Shown one piece after another: positions 2,475 to 26,657 of a stretch of 32,000 nt of DNA. This stretch comes from an uncultured archaeon (GTDB lineage: Archaea; Asgardarchaeota; Thorarchaeia; Thorarchaeales; CAZPUN01), in NCBI GenBank assembly GCA_964589775.1, contig CAZPUN010000035.1, positions 7,987 through 39,986 of the forward strand. The letters run 5' to 3'. The notes beneath the pieces were generated by a model. It had not been told where the DNA came from. It did no database searches and saw nothing but the letters and a program-made list of their open reading frames with translations. Both the position numbers and the translations under genes were made by a program. How positions within the stretch are numbered: the first letter of the stretch is position 1; every line of letters begins with the position of its first letter.

Positions 2475-3122
2475 ATGCAAAAATTCAAAGTAATTACAGG
2501 GGACAGAGCAATTGAAGCGATGCGATTACTAAGCGATAAAACAAGAAGACAAATTTTACATCTTTTAAGAGATAAATCTATGACTACCACCGATATTGCA
2601 GAGGCATTAGGAATCACTGAACAAAATGTAAGATACCATTTATCAAAAATGGAAAGTATAGATTTAGTTGAAATTACTGGACAGCGCCCTTCTGAACGCC
2701 CTCATGTTCTTGAAAACTATTGGAGAGCAACGTCTGAGACTATATATATTAGTATTGGCGAAAATTCAGACATAATAGATCCTACAAAACAGGATCCAAT
2801 ACGTATAATTAAAAAAGTTTTATCAGAATTACCAAATCAAAAGAATAGTAGTATAGATATAGTAAAAATTTTTGAGAAATATGGTATTATTCAAAAGATC
2901 CTTGAGAAAGGCTCTAAAATTGCAGAACGAATAATAAACAATCATATTAAGGATATTGATCCCATAACTAAAAATACGATAATATCATTGATGAATAAAG
3001 TCTTTTTGGATGAAGAAGATTTCCAACTGATTAAAGATTTAGAAGAAGAAATAATCGAGGAACTCAGAAGTTTTTTTAAGCCAAAAATAATATTATCACA
3101 AACTCAGCAAATCAAAAAATAA
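2475..3122 (+). CDS. ArsR-family helix-turn-helix regulator with helical C-terminal domain
   Basis: LSDKTRRQILHLL...MTTTDIAEALGITEQNVRYHLSKME...ENYWRAT. Confidence 0.8.
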   Translation: MQKFKVITGDRAIEAMRLLSDKTRRQILHLLRDKSMTTTDIAEALGITEQNVRYHLSKMESIDLVEITGQRPSERPHVLENYWRATSETIYISIGENSDIIDPTKQDPIRIIKKVLSELPNQKNSSIDIVKIFEKYGIIQKILEKGSKIAERIINNHIKDIDPITKNTIISLMNKVFLDEEDFQLIKDLEEEIIEELRSFFKPKIILSQTQQIKK

Positions 3123-4049: not shown

Positions 4050-4799
4050 TTAGACAGATCTACTAACATTCCATAGAGAATCAAAGTAATTAGCAGCAAT
4101 TGCAGCAAACAAAATATGGTCACTATATATTGCGAGATAACTATCTGCAGATTCAGATAATATAATCATAGTATATTTGTTATCAATAACAAGACCCCCA
4201 CCAAAAATTTTACCCCACAATCGAACTTCCGTATTGGGGGGTAGAACTTTTCGTATTTTATCAGATAGCTCGGTAGTAAGAATCTGCATTTTTATATTCT
4301 TTTTACGTGATATTTTCGAAATTACATCTGAAATTAATTCTTCAGAAATATCAATATTTGGAATCGAAAATTTTATGCTTTCTTCAGCATTTGAAATCAT
4401 CTCAAATAACTTTACAGCTATTGCAGCTTTACCATGCAATATCCAAACATTACGAGTTATTGCTTCACCACTATTTTCGTACAGAGGCTGTAATTCATCA
4501 ATTATAATTTTACTACAGCGATTTAATGTTTCTTCCCAATTATATTTTACAATTTTTACAACTTCAATTGGTGATTTTGCAAGATATCCTGTTGGACGCC
4601 CACGATTTATTTGTATCCAACCCTTATTTTCTAATCTTCCAAGAACATCATAAATTCTAGAATAGGGAATACCACTTTTAGAGCTAATTTGTGAAGCATT
4701 CATTTCACCATATGTAATTAAGGTAACATATGCAGCAACTTCATAATCTGTAAGACCAAGTGTTTTTAGTGCTTCCAGTGCATCTTTTGAAATAGACAT
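4050..4799 (-). CDS. TrmB-family transcriptional regulator/chromatin protein
   Basis: LGLTDYEVAAYVTL...SGIPYSRIYDVLGRLENKGWI...RP; C-terminal PLD-like effector domain (VIDNK...FDSLW). Confidence 0.9.
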   Translation of the reverse strand: MSISKDALEALKTLGLTDYEVAAYVTLITYGEMNASQISSKSGIPYSRIYDVLGRLENKGWIQINRGRPTGYLAKSPIEVVKIVKYNWEETLNRCSKIIIDELQPLYENSGEAITRNVWILHGKAAIAVKLFEMISNAEESIKFSIPNIDISEELISDVISKISRKKNIKMQILTTELSDKIRKVLPPNTEVRLWGKIFGGGLVIDNKYTMIILSESADSYLAIYSDHILFAAIAANYFDSLWNVSRSV

Positions 4800-4802
4800 A
4801 AT

Positions 4803-5372
4803 TCAAGTCACATCCACATCTTTTAACCATTTTATTAATTTAGTAAATGCTTTTGTCCTATGTGAAATTTCGACTTTCTGTAATAAATCTAATTCAGCCA
4901 AAGTGTATTTCATACCCTGTGGAATAAAAATGCTATCATAACCAAAGCCATAAGAACCTCGTTCATCTTCAGCAATTGTACCCTCTAAAACACCCAAAAA
5001 GGTTTTACAAATAGACTCAGAAATACAAATAGATGCAGATGTAATGAATTTTGCGGACCTATTGGAAATTCCGTTCATCAATTTAAGAATTCCATGACGC
5101 CCAATCGTATCTAAAACGAAATGCGCATAGGGACCTGGAAATCCGTTTAATTCATCAATATATAATCCAGTATCATCAACAATTATTGGTTTTCTTATTT
5201 TATCATATGCCTTTCTTACTGCAAATTCAGAAATTAGTTGTAGTTCAGAATTTTGAATTTCTAATTTTTCGACCTTAGCTTGTTTTAAAACAATCCCAAA
5301 TCTACTAAATAGAGGCGATAATTCTTCGATCTTATGTTCATTTGAAGTTGCTAAATATATTTCAGCAATCAT
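4803..5372 (-). CDS. rdgB: Non-canonical purine NTP pyrophosphatase (RdgB/HAM1)
   Basis: ATSNEHK, DDTGLYIDELNGFPGPY, GFGYDSIF and SHR motifs. Confidence 0.93.
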   Translation of the reverse strand: MIAEIYLATSNEHKIEELSPLFSRFGIVLKQAKVEKLEIQNSELQLISEFAVRKAYDKIRKPIIVDDTGLYIDELNGFPGPYAHFVLDTIGRHGILKLMNGISNRSAKFITSASICISESICKTFLGVLEGTIAEDERGSYGFGYDSIFIPQGMKYTLAELDLLQKVEISHRTKAFTKLIKWLKDVDVT

Positions 5373-5419
5373 AATAAATCCCAGAAAAATAATTAATTTT
5401 TAACATATAAGAAAATCTA

Positions 5420-5463
5420 AACATACAAAAAAATCAAAAATATAGGGAAGGGGAATACCCCTT
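5420..5463 (-). terminator. Probable terminator after actin
   Basis: Hairpin AAGGGG-AATA-CCCCTT (5448-5463) followed on the minus strand by TATTTTTGATTTTTTTG. Confidence 0.55.
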
Positions 5464-5476
5464 TTATTACTAATCT

Positions 5477-6622
5477 TTAGATACATCTGTGAATGACTTC
5501 TGGGCCTTGTTCTTCGAATTCCTTCTTTGAGACCCACATCTTCTGGAATGTCTTCAGAGAAGCGATAATTGAACCACCAATCCATACAGAGTACTGTCGT
5601 TCAGGTGGAGCAATAATTCGAACTTCGACATTTTCAGGTACTAATTCGGAAATTTCCTTGTGAAGTCGCTCCTTAAGACCTGGGAACATTGTTGAACCGC
5701 CAGACAAGACAATGTTTGCATAGAGATCTCTTCGTAAGTCGACATCAGTTGCCTTAATCGCATCGACGATTTGTTCATCTAATGGAGCTGTATCAAGACC
5801 GATTGCACTTGGGTTGAAGAACAATTCGGGTGCAAGGAATCGCTCAGCACCAATTGTAATAACTTCACCGTCTGGTAACATGTATGGCTTGTCTACACCA
5901 GCTTTGTCTGCAACTGTCTTTTCACGGTCTGGATCTAATGCGACATAACACAGTTTTTCCTTAATATCACGTACAATTTCTTTCTCAGCACCACTGACGA
6001 AGTTGTAACCTCTCTGACGGAGTAATCTTCGGAGATATTCGGTAATGTCACGACCTGCAAGATCAATTCTTCGGATTGCGTGTGAAATTGCGAATCCTTC
6101 GAAGATAGGGACAATGTGAGTTACACCATCACCACTGTCTACAACAAGACCAGTAGTTCGTCCAGATGCGTATAGAGATAGAATTGCCTGAGTTGAGATA
6201 TATACTGCGGGTACATTGAATTTCTCAAACATCATTGAAGCCATTCTTTCACGATTCTCACGTGGGTTAAATGAAGCTTCAGTTAATAGAACTGGACTTT
6301 CACTTGGATCCACTTTCAAGTCATTGTAGAATGTATATGACCAGATTTTTTCAATGGCTTCCCAATCTTCAATAACACCATGTTCAATTGGATAGATTAG
6401 TCTCAACACACCTCGAAGATTGCTTGCCTCTTCACCAATGTAGTAATCACGAGTATAGTGATCTACATCGGACATAATATGTTCATATCTTGGATATCCA
6501 ATCAAAGTGGGCCAAACAGATCTGGGTTGGTCTTCACCAGCAAATCCGTTCTTAGATAAACCAGTTCCATTGTCTAGTACTATTGGCTTTGCGCCTAGAT
6601 ATTCATCCGGGATGTCTGCCAT
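5477..6622 (-). CDS. Asgard (Lokiactin-type) eukaryote-like actin
   Basis: DNGTGLSKNGFAG, YPIEHG, VLLTEA, LSLYASGRTTGLVVDSGDGVTH, LAGRDIT, LPDG, GGSTMFPG, APPERQYSVWIGGSI and C-terminal HRCI; colinear with actin over 381 aa; SD GGAGGA. Confidence 0.97.
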   Translation of the reverse strand: MADIPDEYLGAKPIVLDNGTGLSKNGFAGEDQPRSVWPTLIGYPRYEHIMSDVDHYTRDYYIGEEASNLRGVLRLIYPIEHGVIEDWEAIEKIWSYTFYNDLKVDPSESPVLLTEASFNPRENRERMASMMFEKFNVPAVYISTQAILSLYASGRTTGLVVDSGDGVTHIVPIFEGFAISHAIRRIDLAGRDITEYLRRLLRQRGYNFVSGAEKEIVRDIKEKLCYVALDPDREKTVADKAGVDKPYMLPDGEVITIGAERFLAPELFFNPSAIGLDTAPLDEQIVDAIKATDVDLRRDLYANIVLSGGSTMFPGLKERLHKEISELVPENVEVRIIAPPERQYSVWIGGSIIASLKTFQKMWVSKKEFEEQGPEVIHRCI

Positions 6623-6656
6623 CTTTTTATTCCTCCATAATTAACAAGTTTACTGG

Positions 6657-6783
6657 ATCTCAATCATAAGATTGAGCAGAATTCCAATCTCAATATAATG
6701 AGAAGTTCTATTTAAGCGTTACCTACATTTTAGGTATTTTTTCTCATAAACTATATAAACAATATAGATTATATAGTTTATGA
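6657..6783. promoter_or_regulatory. Divergent promoter region with several inverted repeats
   Basis: CTCAATC-ATAA-GATTGAG (6659-6676); TCTCA-N6-TGAGA (6688-6703); TACCTA-N5-TAGGTA (6720-6736); TCATAAACTATATAA-N10-TTATATAGTTTATGA (6744-6783); TATA-like CTTAAATA on the minus strand at 6709-6716. Confidence 0.6.
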
Positions 6784-7454
6784 TTATGATGACAATTATT
6801 AATGGAACCAAAATAATAACTGAGGAAATTGGTGAAACACCTGCAAGAATGTATATACTAGAGGCGCTTGTTGAAGGTAACAAGAATGGTTCGGAATTAA
6901 GGAGGATATTACAGGAAAAATTGAATAAGACAAAGATAACAGATCCACAATTATATTATAATTTGAATAAATTAGAAAAACATGGAATAATAAAGAGTAC
7001 GAAAATTTGGAGAGAGAAAAAATATTCATTAAATCCGATATATATACAACCTGTAAGAGACGTATTGAACATCACAAAACCAAAAATAATTTTCTTTAGC
7101 GTTTCAGACCCATCAGAAGTGCGAAATCGATTAAACAACATACTTAGAAAATACAGCATAAAACCACAGAAGATCTTTTTGATAGCAAAAAAGAGTACAT
7201 TTAGAGGGGCAAGACCAATAAGCAATGTATCACTTATTTTTTTCGATGAATCAACATATGATAAATCATTAAATTTTGCAAGACATGAGATTGAGGACTT
7301 AATACTTGCATATATAAGCAATTACGAAATAATTTTTGACATCACATATTTTGGAATAGCGACCATAATAGCAATTACAGAATTATGCCTAAAGTATTCA
7401 ATAAAGTGTTTGAGATTCGAAACTGAATTAATCTGGATACAAAATATTAAATAA
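6780..7454 (+). CDS. Winged-helix transcriptional regulator with C-terminal CARF-like Rossmann domain
   Basis: N-terminal RMYILEAL...SEL...QLYYNLNKLEKHGII...KYSL wHTH (confident). The C-terminal beta/alpha pattern IIFFSVS...PQKIFLIA...IIFDIT resembles Csa3-type CARF (less certain). Confidence 0.65.
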   Translation: MIMMTIINGTKIITEEIGETPARMYILEALVEGNKNGSELRRILQEKLNKTKITDPQLYYNLNKLEKHGIIKSTKIWREKKYSLNPIYIQPVRDVLNITKPKIIFFSVSDPSEVRNRLNNILRKYSIKPQKIFLIAKKSTFRGARPISNVSLIFFDESTYDKSLNFARHEIEDLILAYISNYEIIFDITYFGIATIIAITELCLKYSIKCLRFETELIWIQNIK

Positions 7455-7535: not shown

Positions 7536-8513
7536 TTGAAAGTAGAATTAATAAATACACAAAAATTCGACAGTAAAATTACATCAATAGATATCATAAA
7601 ATCAAAGGAAAATAAAAGTCATTGTATCATAATTGGGTTTGAAAATGGAACAATTGAGATATTTAAGTGGAATATAAAACAATTTGAACCAATTTATAAA
7701 AAGCAAACCCATGACTTGGTTTTTTCAGTTAATGCTACGGACATTGATATGGACGATAACGAAGAAGCGATAATCACATACATTTCAGGTGATATTAAAG
7801 TATTCATGAAAGATAAAGCAAATTTAATGGAAATCAGTTCAATTTCTCTTGGATGTACGCCAACCGCCATATGCTTAGCAAATGTTTCAAATGATAAAAC
7901 AAATGAATTAATAGTTTCTACACAAGACGGCGCTCTTAGAGCCTATGGCTGGTTTTCAGGATATTTAGATAAATTAGCTCATAAAGTATTAGATAAGCCT
8001 ATTGATATAATGAAACCAATTAAATCTTACACACAGAGATATTCGCGCATTTTAACTAGCCAAGAAAATATAATTAAAGCATATGTTTATGCAGATGATA
8101 GACTACATGAGATATATTCAATTAGTTTAGATGATGCTATAAAAGAAATGGAGATCGGCGATTTAGATCATGACCGAACAACAGAAGTAATTATATTAGA
8201 TACAAAAAATAATTTGAAAATATATAAGCAAATTCAGAAAGGCTTGGATTTAGTGTCTACTCTAAAATTGGATAAAAATTTTGAACGCATGAATATAATT
8301 AATTATAAAGGCCAGGACTATCTTTTATTATCAAAAGAAGATAACGCATCGATTTGTAAAATAAATAATAACAAAATTGAGCCTATATTAAAATTTAAAA
8401 TAAAAAACCATTATGAGCGAACGTTATTTACAACAATGGATGTGGATGATAATACAAAAATTCTAATACATACGATAGACAACATTATGGAGATATTTAA
8501 AATAAAGGATTAA
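7536..8513 (+). CDS. Cytosolic beta-propeller protein with FG-GAP-like repeats
   Basis: Repeated DIDMDDNEEAII / NVSNDKTNELIVS / GDLDHDRTTEVII loops with ~45-aa beta-strand periodicity; no signal peptide; TTG start after GGGGG. Confidence 0.7.
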   Translation: MKVELINTQKFDSKITSIDIIKSKENKSHCIIIGFENGTIEIFKWNIKQFEPIYKKQTHDLVFSVNATDIDMDDNEEAIITYISGDIKVFMKDKANLMEISSISLGCTPTAICLANVSNDKTNELIVSTQDGALRAYGWFSGYLDKLAHKVLDKPIDIMKPIKSYTQRYSRILTSQENIIKAYVYADDRLHEIYSISLDDAIKEMEIGDLDHDRTTEVIILDTKNNLKIYKQIQKGLDLVSTLKLDKNFERMNIINYKGQDYLLLSKEDNASICKINNNKIEPILKFKIKNHYERTLFTTMDVDDNTKILIHTIDNIMEIFKIKD

Positions 8514-9382
8514 GAGGGAAATTCAGAATCCTCTTCTGAAATAGATCTAAATACACTATTTTCATTATGATTTATTACAGATTTAACCTCAGATAATACG
8601 AGTGGAGTATTATTTAAGAACAGCTCAAATTCCACATAAGGTTTAAGACCTGAAGTCTCCAATTTTTTACCCAAAACTTGCTCAACTTGGAATACACCAG
8701 CAGGGTTTTCCATTTCGATATGAATACAGACAGGACTGTTCTTACCTTCAACAATTTCGACTGTTTTTATAGCTAATGCGCTTATACTATGAATATCGAT
8801 CTTACCCTTTGATGCGGGCAACCTACTACGTCCTTCAGTTAAGTCGCAGCCGTCCCCGACTTTGACTGCCCCGGCTTCAATTGTTAGACAGGGAATCTCG
8901 TCATCATGCGACATAATTCCATGTAATATTAGACTGAAAATATCAGTGCGCTTTTGAAGATCATCAGGATACAAGTCATTGACAACTTTCTCTATGAAAT
9001 CTTTTCCGAAAATTGCAGAATATGAGGGATGCCAAATTCTATGAACAATATGGCCAATATCATGCAAAAATGCAGAAGTGACAACAACAACGAGGGAATC
9101 ATCTAAAGACCCAATTCCTTCAGATACTACATTTGGCGAAATATGTTTAGATAGCGTTTTAAGAACCTTTATCGCATTTAAGGTTGCAATATGGGCATGT
9201 ACAATACCATGATCATTATAAGATAGACGATCTACTGCCATACGATTTCCAGATATGTAATAAGCATTTAATTTTTCATCAGATGATAACAGATTAAATG
9301 CGCGAATAGCCTTTGGAAAATCCTTAAGTTCATCTAGTATTTTTTTTCTATATTTTAATACGAATTTTGATGACACAATCAA
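8510..9382 (-). CDS. HD-domain metal-dependent phosphohydrolase (COG3294-like)
   Basis: YNDHGIVH, LHDIGH, MSHD, DGCDLTEGRSR, DIHSISA, NPAGVFQVE. Confidence 0.85.
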   Translation of the reverse strand: MIVSSKFVLKYRKKILDELKDFPKAIRAFNLLSSDEKLNAYYISGNRMAVDRLSYNDHGIVHAHIATLNAIKVLKTLSKHISPNVVSEGIGSLDDSLVVVVTSAFLHDIGHIVHRIWHPSYSAIFGKDFIEKVVNDLYPDDLQKRTDIFSLILHGIMSHDDEIPCLTIEAGAVKVGDGCDLTEGRSRLPASKGKIDIHSISALAIKTVEIVEGKNSPVCIHIEMENPAGVFQVEQVLGKKLETSGLKPYVEFELFLNNTPLVLSEVKSVINHNENSVFRSISEEDSEFPS

Positions 9383-25511: not shown

Positions 25512-26657
25512 ATGAATCTGATGAAAACCATTGCAAAGCGATATTGGAAATTGCTCACAGTTATATTTATCATTGGACTGATTGTCATTCCAATTGCAGA
25601 CATGCACATCATCGAGAGGGATCGAAACAGAAATGAAATATACGGGGAGCTGTTTTGGCAAATTGGATTTAATGTTTACAAAATTAATGATAACATATTA
25701 AAAACACAATATAATGTATCAGAAGACCACTTACTAGCAAGCTATTTGAATGTAACTTATGAATATCCCGTTATTACATTATTATTTTTTGCATTCATTA
25801 CAGGGATTTTCCCTGGAATACATGGGCTTCAACATATATTCATTAATATAGTATTATTGATAATATATATCGCAAATCTTCTATTAATATTATATATCGG
25901 AAGAAAATATCTAGAAAAATCATGGTTTAAATTAGTGTTTTCAGCGTATGCAATATATGGATTTATTATGGCAGTTTTTGGAGGAAAAGTTGAACCATTA
26001 ACAGATTTCTTTTTCTTACTATCGATCTATTTTATGCAACGAAATAACACCAAAATGGGTCATTTTCTTTTGGGAATTTCAGTACAAACAAAAGTATATA
26101 CAGCAATAGCTTTTCCAATCTATTTCATAATAGCGCCAATTGATTCGATTTTCTTCTTCCTATCATTACTGATTACTGTTATTCCATTCATAAGTACAGG
26201 ATTATCATATGATACATTAGTTAGACACTTCCTAAATGATACGGGATATAGCCCATACGCTACAAACTCACTCTGGTTAGGCAGAGTATTCTTAAATCCA
26301 TGGTCGATAACTACATTCATTATATTCATAATATTGGAGATCTTTACAATATTTAAATTCGATAAAGAGCCCAATTCAAAGTTTGGAATAAAAGTAAGCT
26401 TCAGAATAAGAAGCCTACAGGATATTTATATGGTATTATTCCCGGGAACACTATTCCTTTACAGATGGGTAATGCCATGGTACTTCGGATGGTTCATTCC
26501 ACTAACATTGATACTCAAAAAAGAACAAAGCGTATACTACTATCTACGAGTAATTACAATAATTGGATTCCTTTATGTTTTAGGGATCTTGATTAACATC
26601 AACTATTATCTCACAAATGGACTATTACAAGAATTCGTGGGGCACTTCCAACCATAA
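25512..26657 (+). CDS. Polytopic GT-C-like glycosyltransferase (GT87/PIG-M-like)
   Basis: About 10 TM segments, first loop ending YEYP, LGISVQTKVY (GxxxxxKxY) and VMPWYFGWFIPL motifs. Confidence 0.6.
   Translation: MNLMKTIAKRYWKLLTVIFIIGLIVIPIADMHIIERDRNRNEIYGELFWQIGFNVYKINDNILKTQYNVSEDHLLASYLNVTYEYPVITLLFFAFITGIFPGIHGLQHIFINIVLLIIYIANLLLILYIGRKYLEKSWFKLVFSAYAIYGFIMAVFGGKVEPLTDFFFLLSIYFMQRNNTKMGHFLLGISVQTKVYTAIAFPIYFIIAPIDSIFFFLSLLITVIPFISTGLSYDTLVRHFLNDTGYSPYATNSLWLGRVFLNPWSITTFIIFIILEIFTIFKFDKEPNSKFGIKVSFRIRSLQDIYMVLFPGTLFLYRWVMPWYFGWFIPLTLILKKEQSVYYYLRVITIIGFLYVLGILININYYLTNGLLQEFVGHFQP

Follow-up and report, generated by a model that had tools for sequence, protein, structure and literature searches.

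The locus analysed here raises the question of what a small protein joining a winged helix-turn-helix (wHTH) to a CARF-like domain is doing head-to-head with an actin gene. The window, by which we mean the whole stretch of 32,000 nt that was analysed, comes from an uncultured archaeon (GTDB Asgardarchaeota; Thorarchaeia; Thorarchaeales; CAZPUN01) and corresponds to positions 7,987-39,986 of the forward strand of contig CAZPUN010000035.1 in assembly GCA_964589775.1. Its G+C content is about 34% and its gene content is that of housekeeping genes; homologues carry the source names Promethearchaeota and Hodarchaeota. CARF dimers bind cyclic oligonucleotides, and the original prediction, made by eye, was that a CARF-fold sensor repurposed outside immunity possibly links a small-molecule signal to actin transcription.

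The answer that we favour, with a confidence only slightly better than even, is that this protein, P0001, would be a dimeric wHTH-CARF transcription factor at a promoter shared by actin and its own gene, with a sensor pocket remodelled in this archaeal order. Below, f1 denotes the window's own family and f2 the neighbouring family of the same order. The genes and domains concerned are as follows.

5477..6622, minus strand: actin gene of the Lokiactin type, 381 aa, the divergent partner (Pfam Actin, 441 bits)
6780..7454, plus strand: longest open reading frame (ORF) of the wHTH-CARF regulator P0001 in the ORF list, 224 aa
6804..7073, plus strand: PadR/ArsR-like winged helix-turn-helix, aa 9-98, with the recognition-helix motif LYYNLNKLEKHGII
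7077..7445, plus strand: C-terminal CARF domain, aa 100-222, as placed by the AF2 model

Fold and family of the regulator

Folding P0001 alone by AF2, with no alignment, gave an unusable model (pLDDT 49). After refolding with an alignment of 29 sequences, the model reached a pLDDT of 88.3 and a pTM of 0.85 and comprised a wHTH followed by a CARF domain. The CARF elements are strand b1 (aa 102-107), helix a1 (111-124), strands b2 (131-137) and b3 (151-155), helix a3 (164-178), strand b4 (183-187), helix a4 (193-206) and a b5-b6 hairpin (209-221). The CARF domain has been defined by a six-stranded Rossmann-like core whose strands 5 and 6 form a beta-hairpin (PMC4012209), and the order of elements in P0001, the Rossmann-like core included, agrees with this definition; the strand and helix order first read by eye is reproduced by the model. 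The polar Ser or Thr that ends strand 1 in CARF domains is also present, as KIIFFS (aa 102-107) is followed by VSD (Ser107 and Ser109).

The closest fold matches of the CARF part are cOA-binding CARF domains. Independently of the model, the family profile matched the CARF nucleases 9jxw (E 0.006) and 8z4i (E 0.008) in the PDB, with DvtgGtK of the family opposite DITPGRK of 9jxw. The PADLOC profile PDLC01987 ('CARF_m5--CARF'), which like the other PADLOC profiles has no curated cut-off, matched P0001 with an E value of 1.5e-22 and 78.6 bits over aa 15-220 (profile positions 4-195 of 195). Its matches to relatives of P0001 went down to E 8e-60, and a CRISPR-linked member (L055) gave E 5.9e-44. 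By these profile comparisons P0001 is a member of the minor CARF family CARF_m5, which combines a PadR-like winged helix with a C-terminal CARF domain, and the likeness runs over the full length of the profile, wHTH included. On the fold matches, the PDB profile matches, the CARF_m5 match and the type III sister clade described below, the CARF call is right.

In Pfam and NCBIfam P0001 had no CARF match above threshold, and Pfam was blank in the C-terminal half. On aa 21-86, Pfam gave sub-threshold matches to the winged-helix families PadR, HTH_20, FUR and HTH_5; the PadR family (PF03551) scored 24.3 bits, below its gathering cut-off of 27, which leaves P0001 outside that family, and sub-threshold PadR matches recurred in 22 of the 29 family members. 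Typical PadR-family repressors act as dimers on palindromic operators and regulate their own genes. P0001 resembles such repressors (PadR, LmrR, Pex) in its winged helix and recognition-helix motif, in profile matches to Pex and 1xma and in fold matches; however, where they have a C-terminal dimerisation helix, P0001 has the CARF domain. CARF domains characteristically form homodimers whose interface takes up the ligand; the two-copy complex prediction for P0001 gave a score of 0.06, which speaks neither for nor against a dimer. An exhaustive HMMER search returned only 15 representatives, of similar length throughout and with 25-65% identity, and a profile search found about 15 further homologues, in Asgard MAGs only.

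Csa3 (Csa3a and Csa3b; PDB 6wxq and 6w11), which comprises the CRISPR-associated CARF-wHTH transcription factors of Sulfolobales and binds cyclic tetra-adenylate, has the CARF domain first and the wHTH second, whereas in P0001 the wHTH comes first, a reversal that the original prediction had pointed out and that the model bears out. Csa3 lies in or beside a CRISPR-cas locus, while P0001 has a non-CRISPR locus with actin as its partner gene. Other differences are that the wHTH of P0001 is of PadR type, that its pocket signature is degenerate, and that only the HTH parts of Csa3 profiles match it, weakly (E about 1e-4). A separate, true Csa3-type protein is encoded in the same genome on contig C20 (L062:1483-2145, plus strand). 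This second CARF-wHTH protein, 221 aa in length, matches PADLOC CARF3 with E 3e-17 and has the CARF domain first and then an EarA-like wHTH. Its gene lies outside a CRISPR locus, with a LarA-like gene on one flank and DUF2299 and Ras-family small GTPase genes on the other.

Association with actin and with type III CRISPR across the phylum

When 400 genomes of the phylum were searched in full, 187 of them gave regulator matches, and about 60 loci were sampled for adjacency. Among the 30 best loci, 27 had a readable upstream flank and actin was divergent in 23 of these; in f2 it was divergent in all 12 sampled loci. Metagenome homologues with 25-27% identity to P0001 still have a divergent actin gene, although their other neighbours differ, and the actins beside regulator homologues are 65-90% identical. 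Of the sampled GTDB families, 10 have members of the actin-linked clade in divergent orientation to actin, and one more, f17, has a co-directional pair with the regulator upstream of actin on the same strand. Altogether 38 of the 42 sampled actin-clade members with a readable flank adjoin a Lokiactin gene. Absence of an actin link in relatives had been named beforehand as an outcome that would speak against the prediction, and the link holds. Four actin-clade loci, in f15, f18 and f19, have CDC48, a hexapeptide transferase or a gene of unknown family in place of actin. Since adjacency is lost in these four members and many Asgard families gave no strong regulator match in the 400-genome search, control of actin by the regulator would not be universal.

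A maximum-likelihood tree of 65 non-identical members, which was only midpoint-rooted and so gives no direction of transfer, showed a 99/97 split between an actin-linked clade of 46 rows and another clade of 19 rows. The 46 rows comprise 37 actin-divergent members, 1 co-directional member, 4 at contig ends and 4 unlinked. None of the 19 rows is near actin and 7 of them are at or near Cas10. Among the 19, one member is head-to-head with a Cas10(HD)-RAMP-RAMP operon beside a CRISPR array (37-nt repeat), one adjoins a Cas_NE0113 gene and Cas10, and one adjoins Csx1. According to the tree, the actin-linked proteins are a distinct, Asgard-specific branch of a family with genuine type III CRISPR-associated members. 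In two loci of the 19-row clade (L073:1796-4939 and L085:3-2912), a gene for a TPR-repeat protein of about 1000 aa directly follows the wHTH-CARF gene, and its product may be an uncharacterised CARF-associated effector.

The type III loci bear on a different explanation of P0001, namely that it is a Csa3-like defence regulator which answers the cyclic oligoadenylates of the genome's type III CRISPR system, its position beside actin being incidental. Cas10 genes are present elsewhere in the window's own genome, on contig C39, sister-clade members sit in type III loci, and the closest folds bind such ligands. However, the 32-kb window holds no CRISPR array and ten of its ORFs gave no cas match above threshold in PADLOC or Pfam, so that the locus lies outside CRISPR as had been claimed; the actin-linked clade occurs in many genomes and families without Cas10; and the Lys or Arg of the nucleotide pocket is missing here, as described below. 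Cas10 was found in 69 of the 400 genomes and is much rarer than the regulator, most of whose host genomes lack it: the respective counts are 12 and 81 of 86 genomes in f2, and 0 and 12 of 19 in f14, and the searched genomes of f4, f17, f18, f19 and f28 contain no Cas10. The incompleteness of MAGs blurs single genomes but not this contrast. We regard a defence role of this kind as highly improbable.

The pocket signature and selection on the CARF domain

7338..7358, plus strand: degenerate post-strand-4 motif DITYFGI, aa 187-193, in place of [DN]x[ST]xxx[RK]

In this motif P0001 keeps D187 and T189 and has Ile where the signature ends in Lys or Arg (K/R); the family consensus in an alignment with distant members is D[VL][TS]xGx[RK]. 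A K/R at position +6 is found in 0 of 3 members of f1 (D[IL]TYFG[IFY]) and 0 of 12 members of f2 (DLSxGPP-like), but in 49 of the 50 members outside the order (30 of 31 from the rest of the actin clade and 19 of 19 from the other clade). The complete signature is present in 27 of these 31 and 13 of these 19, respectively. In f1, moreover, the conserved Gly is displaced and a Tyr and a Phe stand within the motif. The degeneracy described in the original prediction is therefore real, and it sets this lineage apart within CARF_m5. Because f1 and f2 form one clade in the tree (support 95/93), a single loss of the K/R in this order would be the simplest reading.

The dN/dS of the CARF part was 0.055 between the window and L001, 0.065 between the window and L006, and 0.15 between L001 and L006. 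As these values are no higher than those of the wHTH, the CARF part is constrained no less than the wHTH. The CARF domain is not decaying and is under purifying selection.

RtcR, a sigma-54 enhancer-binding protein, is a CARF-AAA+-HTH activator of the RNA-repair operon rtcBA. It provides a precedent for a CARF transcription regulator outside CRISPR immunity, and its CARF domain mostly lacks the post-strand-4 K/R, as does that of the RV2818 family; both have been suggested to bind other ligands (PMC4012209), and the K/R is thus a frequent but not an obligatory part of the CARF signature. RtcR differs from P0001 in its AAA+ module and its other HTH and has no sequence kinship with it beyond the CARF superfamily, so the comparison is an analogy only.

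With the K/R lost, the Gly displaced and Tyr and Phe in the motif, the P0001 orthologue may bind no ligand whatever. In that case the CARF domain would be only a dimerisation scaffold, and the protein would act constitutively on the shared promoter, as an (auto)repressor or an activator. The absence of the K/R from all 15 members of the order and the altered motif of f1 agree with such a ligand-blind factor, and a structural role too would need purifying selection on the domain. On the other hand, P0001 keeps D187, T189 and the Ser residues that follow strand 1, the RtcR and RV2818 CARFs without K/R are thought to bind other ligands (PMC4012209), and the constraint on the CARF part at least equals that on the wHTH. 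We consider it unlikely that the factor is blind to ligands, though this is the strongest of the alternatives. As for the favoured reading of a remodelled sensor, the loss of the K/R and the moved Gly, set against the purifying selection, point to a different ligand or to a constitutive module. Since the whole order lacks the K/R of the nucleotide pocket, cyclic-oligonucleotide sensing is least safe for P0001 of this window, and the idea of a cyclic oligoadenylate in particular is weakest here.

The control region, the neighbouring genes and a possible mechanism

6623..6788, no strand assigned: intergenic region from actin to the likely regulator start, 166 nt (157 nt if counted up to the first ATG)
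6744..6783, no strand assigned: near-perfect palindrome of 40 nt with TATA-like elements and perfect 14-nt outer arms, CATAAACTATATAA / TTATATAGTTTATG
6789-7454, plus strand: probable true coding sequence of the regulator P0001, 221 aa, its start kept in relatives

The intergenic region is 95% identical to that of L001 and 86% identical to that of L006, while the regulator coding sequence has a nucleotide identity of only 75% and 67%, respectively, and the dS of actin against the relatives is 0.79-1.13. As the intergenic region is far more conserved than the regulator coding sequence and the synonymous sites of actin, it is under strong selective constraint. The palindrome is on the regulator's side of the region; 38 of its 40 positions are kept in L001 and likewise in L006, and its paired-arm arrangement is unique in the genome. 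We consider it a candidate twin promoter and/or operator. Against the preferred reading, its TATA-like make-up means that it could be just a symmetric bidirectional promoter to which no regulator binds.

The genome was searched for a regulon with the 14-nt arm, and sites with at most one mismatch were not enriched (7, against 14 for the reversed control). The sole other exact copy of the arm is on contig C64 (L086:2015-2066), where 640 nt free of ORFs separate an MBL-fold gene from a 112-aa ORF of unknown family. A degenerate partner lies 22 nt off in everted arrangement, and this copy may be a further binding site or have arisen by chance. In several f2 members a related element, ATATAG[GA]T, precedes the MFW start of the regulator by 25-35 nt. 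Other families have palindromes of TCATCTnTAT half-sites, a motif chosen post hoc, in the same intergenic region; the half-site TCATCTnTA occurs in 12 of 17 groups against a mean of 3, an enrichment that the post hoc choice overstates; the sequences being AT-rich as well, the motif is taken as a lead only. In the conserved actin-proximal part of the window's intergenic region (6657-6701), ATCTCAAT occurs twice as a direct repeat with a spacing of 30 nt, and an inverted repeat, CTCAATCAT/AAGATTGAG, can form a short hairpin; close relatives keep all these elements.

The first ATG of the regulator (6780) falls within the right arm of the palindrome, and in L006 it is out of frame. All three close relatives, in contrast, keep the ATG that aligns with 6789, the fourth in the window's gene. 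The regulator start is likely the ATG at 6789. The head-to-head arrangement of regulator and actin that was described at the outset, and the reading frame itself, stand; the start at 6780 probably does not. No Shine-Dalgarno sequence precedes 6789, and TATA-like elements lie 20-35 nt upstream of it, an arrangement that fits a leaderless mRNA, so the regulator mRNA may be leaderless. The actin gene has the Shine-Dalgarno sequence GGAGGAA at 6630-6636, read on the minus strand.

Two genes follow the regulator.

7536..8513, plus strand: BBS2/BBS7-like beta-propeller, signal-less, 81 nt downstream of the regulator and co-directional with it
8510-9382, minus strand: HD-domain protein, converging with the propeller gene (shared TTAA at 8510-8513)

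The propeller gene may be co-transcribed with the regulator. In L001-L006 a propeller homologue likewise lies downstream, and 10 of the 12 sampled f2 loci have one about 3 kb further down; the HD protein of the window was found in f1 only. In L041, the sole f2 locus examined in this respect, a gene for a 230-aa RNase III-domain protein (4756-5445) comes 2 nt after the regulator and is followed by a convergent HD/HD_assoc_2 gene, the BBS-like propeller lying about 3 kb downstream; the window has no RNase III gene and its propeller comes directly after the regulator. A wider 'sensor / scaffold / eraser' module that would include the propeller and the HD protein had also been proposed; this had to be given up, as the link of regulator and propeller is conserved at order level only. 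In several distant lineages an Arf/Ras-family small GTPase gene, encoding a eukaryote-signature protein, lies just downstream of the regulator, co-directional in L009:6759-7319 and L010:3991-4551 and convergent in L058:3734-4267. Elsewhere in the window, an HTH protein (2475-3122) was considered as a paralogue of the regulator and rejected; only its HTH matches Csa3 profiles. A plus-strand ORF at 25512-26657 has the same length as actin (381 aa), lies between cytidylyltransferase-like and proteasome subunit genes, and has no Pfam or PADLOC family.

The neighbouring genes and the palindrome bear on two further explanations. One is that the regulator controls only itself and the genes downstream of it, its adjacency to actin being an old, slowly decaying gene order. 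Autoregulation is the rule among PadR and ArsR regulators, a co-directional gene follows in both f1 (propeller) and f2 (RNase III), and the palindrome is at the regulator's end. However, the downstream genes vary by lineage (propeller, RNase III, Arf-like GTPase, ComB, a 726-aa protein of unknown family) and actin is the sole constant partner across 11 families; in addition, conservation extends through the entire region as far as the actin start and clearly exceeds that of synonymous sites. Control confined to the regulator and its downstream genes is thus, in our judgement, distinctly unlikely. The other is that the target of the winged helix is a protein or an RNA (actin or its mRNA, for instance), which would make P0001 a post-transcriptional or protein-level partner of actin. 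The family profile does match weakly the winged helix of eS10/plectin, which is no DNA binder, and the 5' region of actin, which would span about 120 nt with the mirror TATA in use, is highly conserved. But the recognition helix has the motif seen in PadR proteins, and DNA-binding repressors head the matches by both sequence and fold. Shuffled versions of the putative actin 5'UTR fold as well as the real one (z -1.2), and Rfam gave nothing credible on the intergenic region. We think a role of this sort very improbable.

Returning to the preferred reading, in which P0001 is a transcription factor of the shared promoter, we infer that the regulator would act as a dimer, like PadR and CARF proteins, and would bind the conserved palindrome, whose sequence coincides in part with the TATA elements of the 157-nt region that the two genes share. 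Binding at this putative operator would set the transcription of both actin and the regulator's own, perhaps leaderless, gene, and the CARF domain would modulate it. In most Asgard lineages, which have the canonical pocket signature, the domain probably responds to a signal that is derived from a nucleotide and has a source other than Cas10; in this order it would bind a different ligand or serve as a constitutive dimerisation or allosteric module. A bolder version, which we offer tentatively and hold to be possible though doubtful, is that a CARF domain of the type III CRISPR kind became a CRISPR-independent input to the actin promoter, that this input dates back as far as the major Asgard classes do, and that it was re-tuned here through loss of the K/R to a non-canonical ligand.

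The family as a PADLOC profile name, wHTH/CARF regulators (Csa3) and non-CRISPR CARF regulators (RtcR) are already known. Our literature search found no paper on the link with actin or using the family name CARF_m5, and none naming a transcription factor for Lokiactin. The window contributes three things: the absence of the pocket K/R throughout the order, through loss, a strongly constrained palindromic control region and a corrected start codon.

One small protein beside actin in 11 sampled GTDB families gives a concrete experimental handle, consisting of a defined protein, a DNA target of 157 nt that includes a conserved palindrome, and a sensor pocket. Natural variants can be compared directly, namely the canonical signature of most lineages and the K/R-less form of this order. 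As in RtcR, a sensor domain of the defence type appears to have been reused for a housekeeping or cell-biology gene. If the reading of a re-tuned sensor is true, small molecules would control the expression of actin, and the sensor would exist in at least two ligand specificities. The gene pair thus offers a candidate switch, open to experimental test, for the eukaryote-like actin of these archaea.
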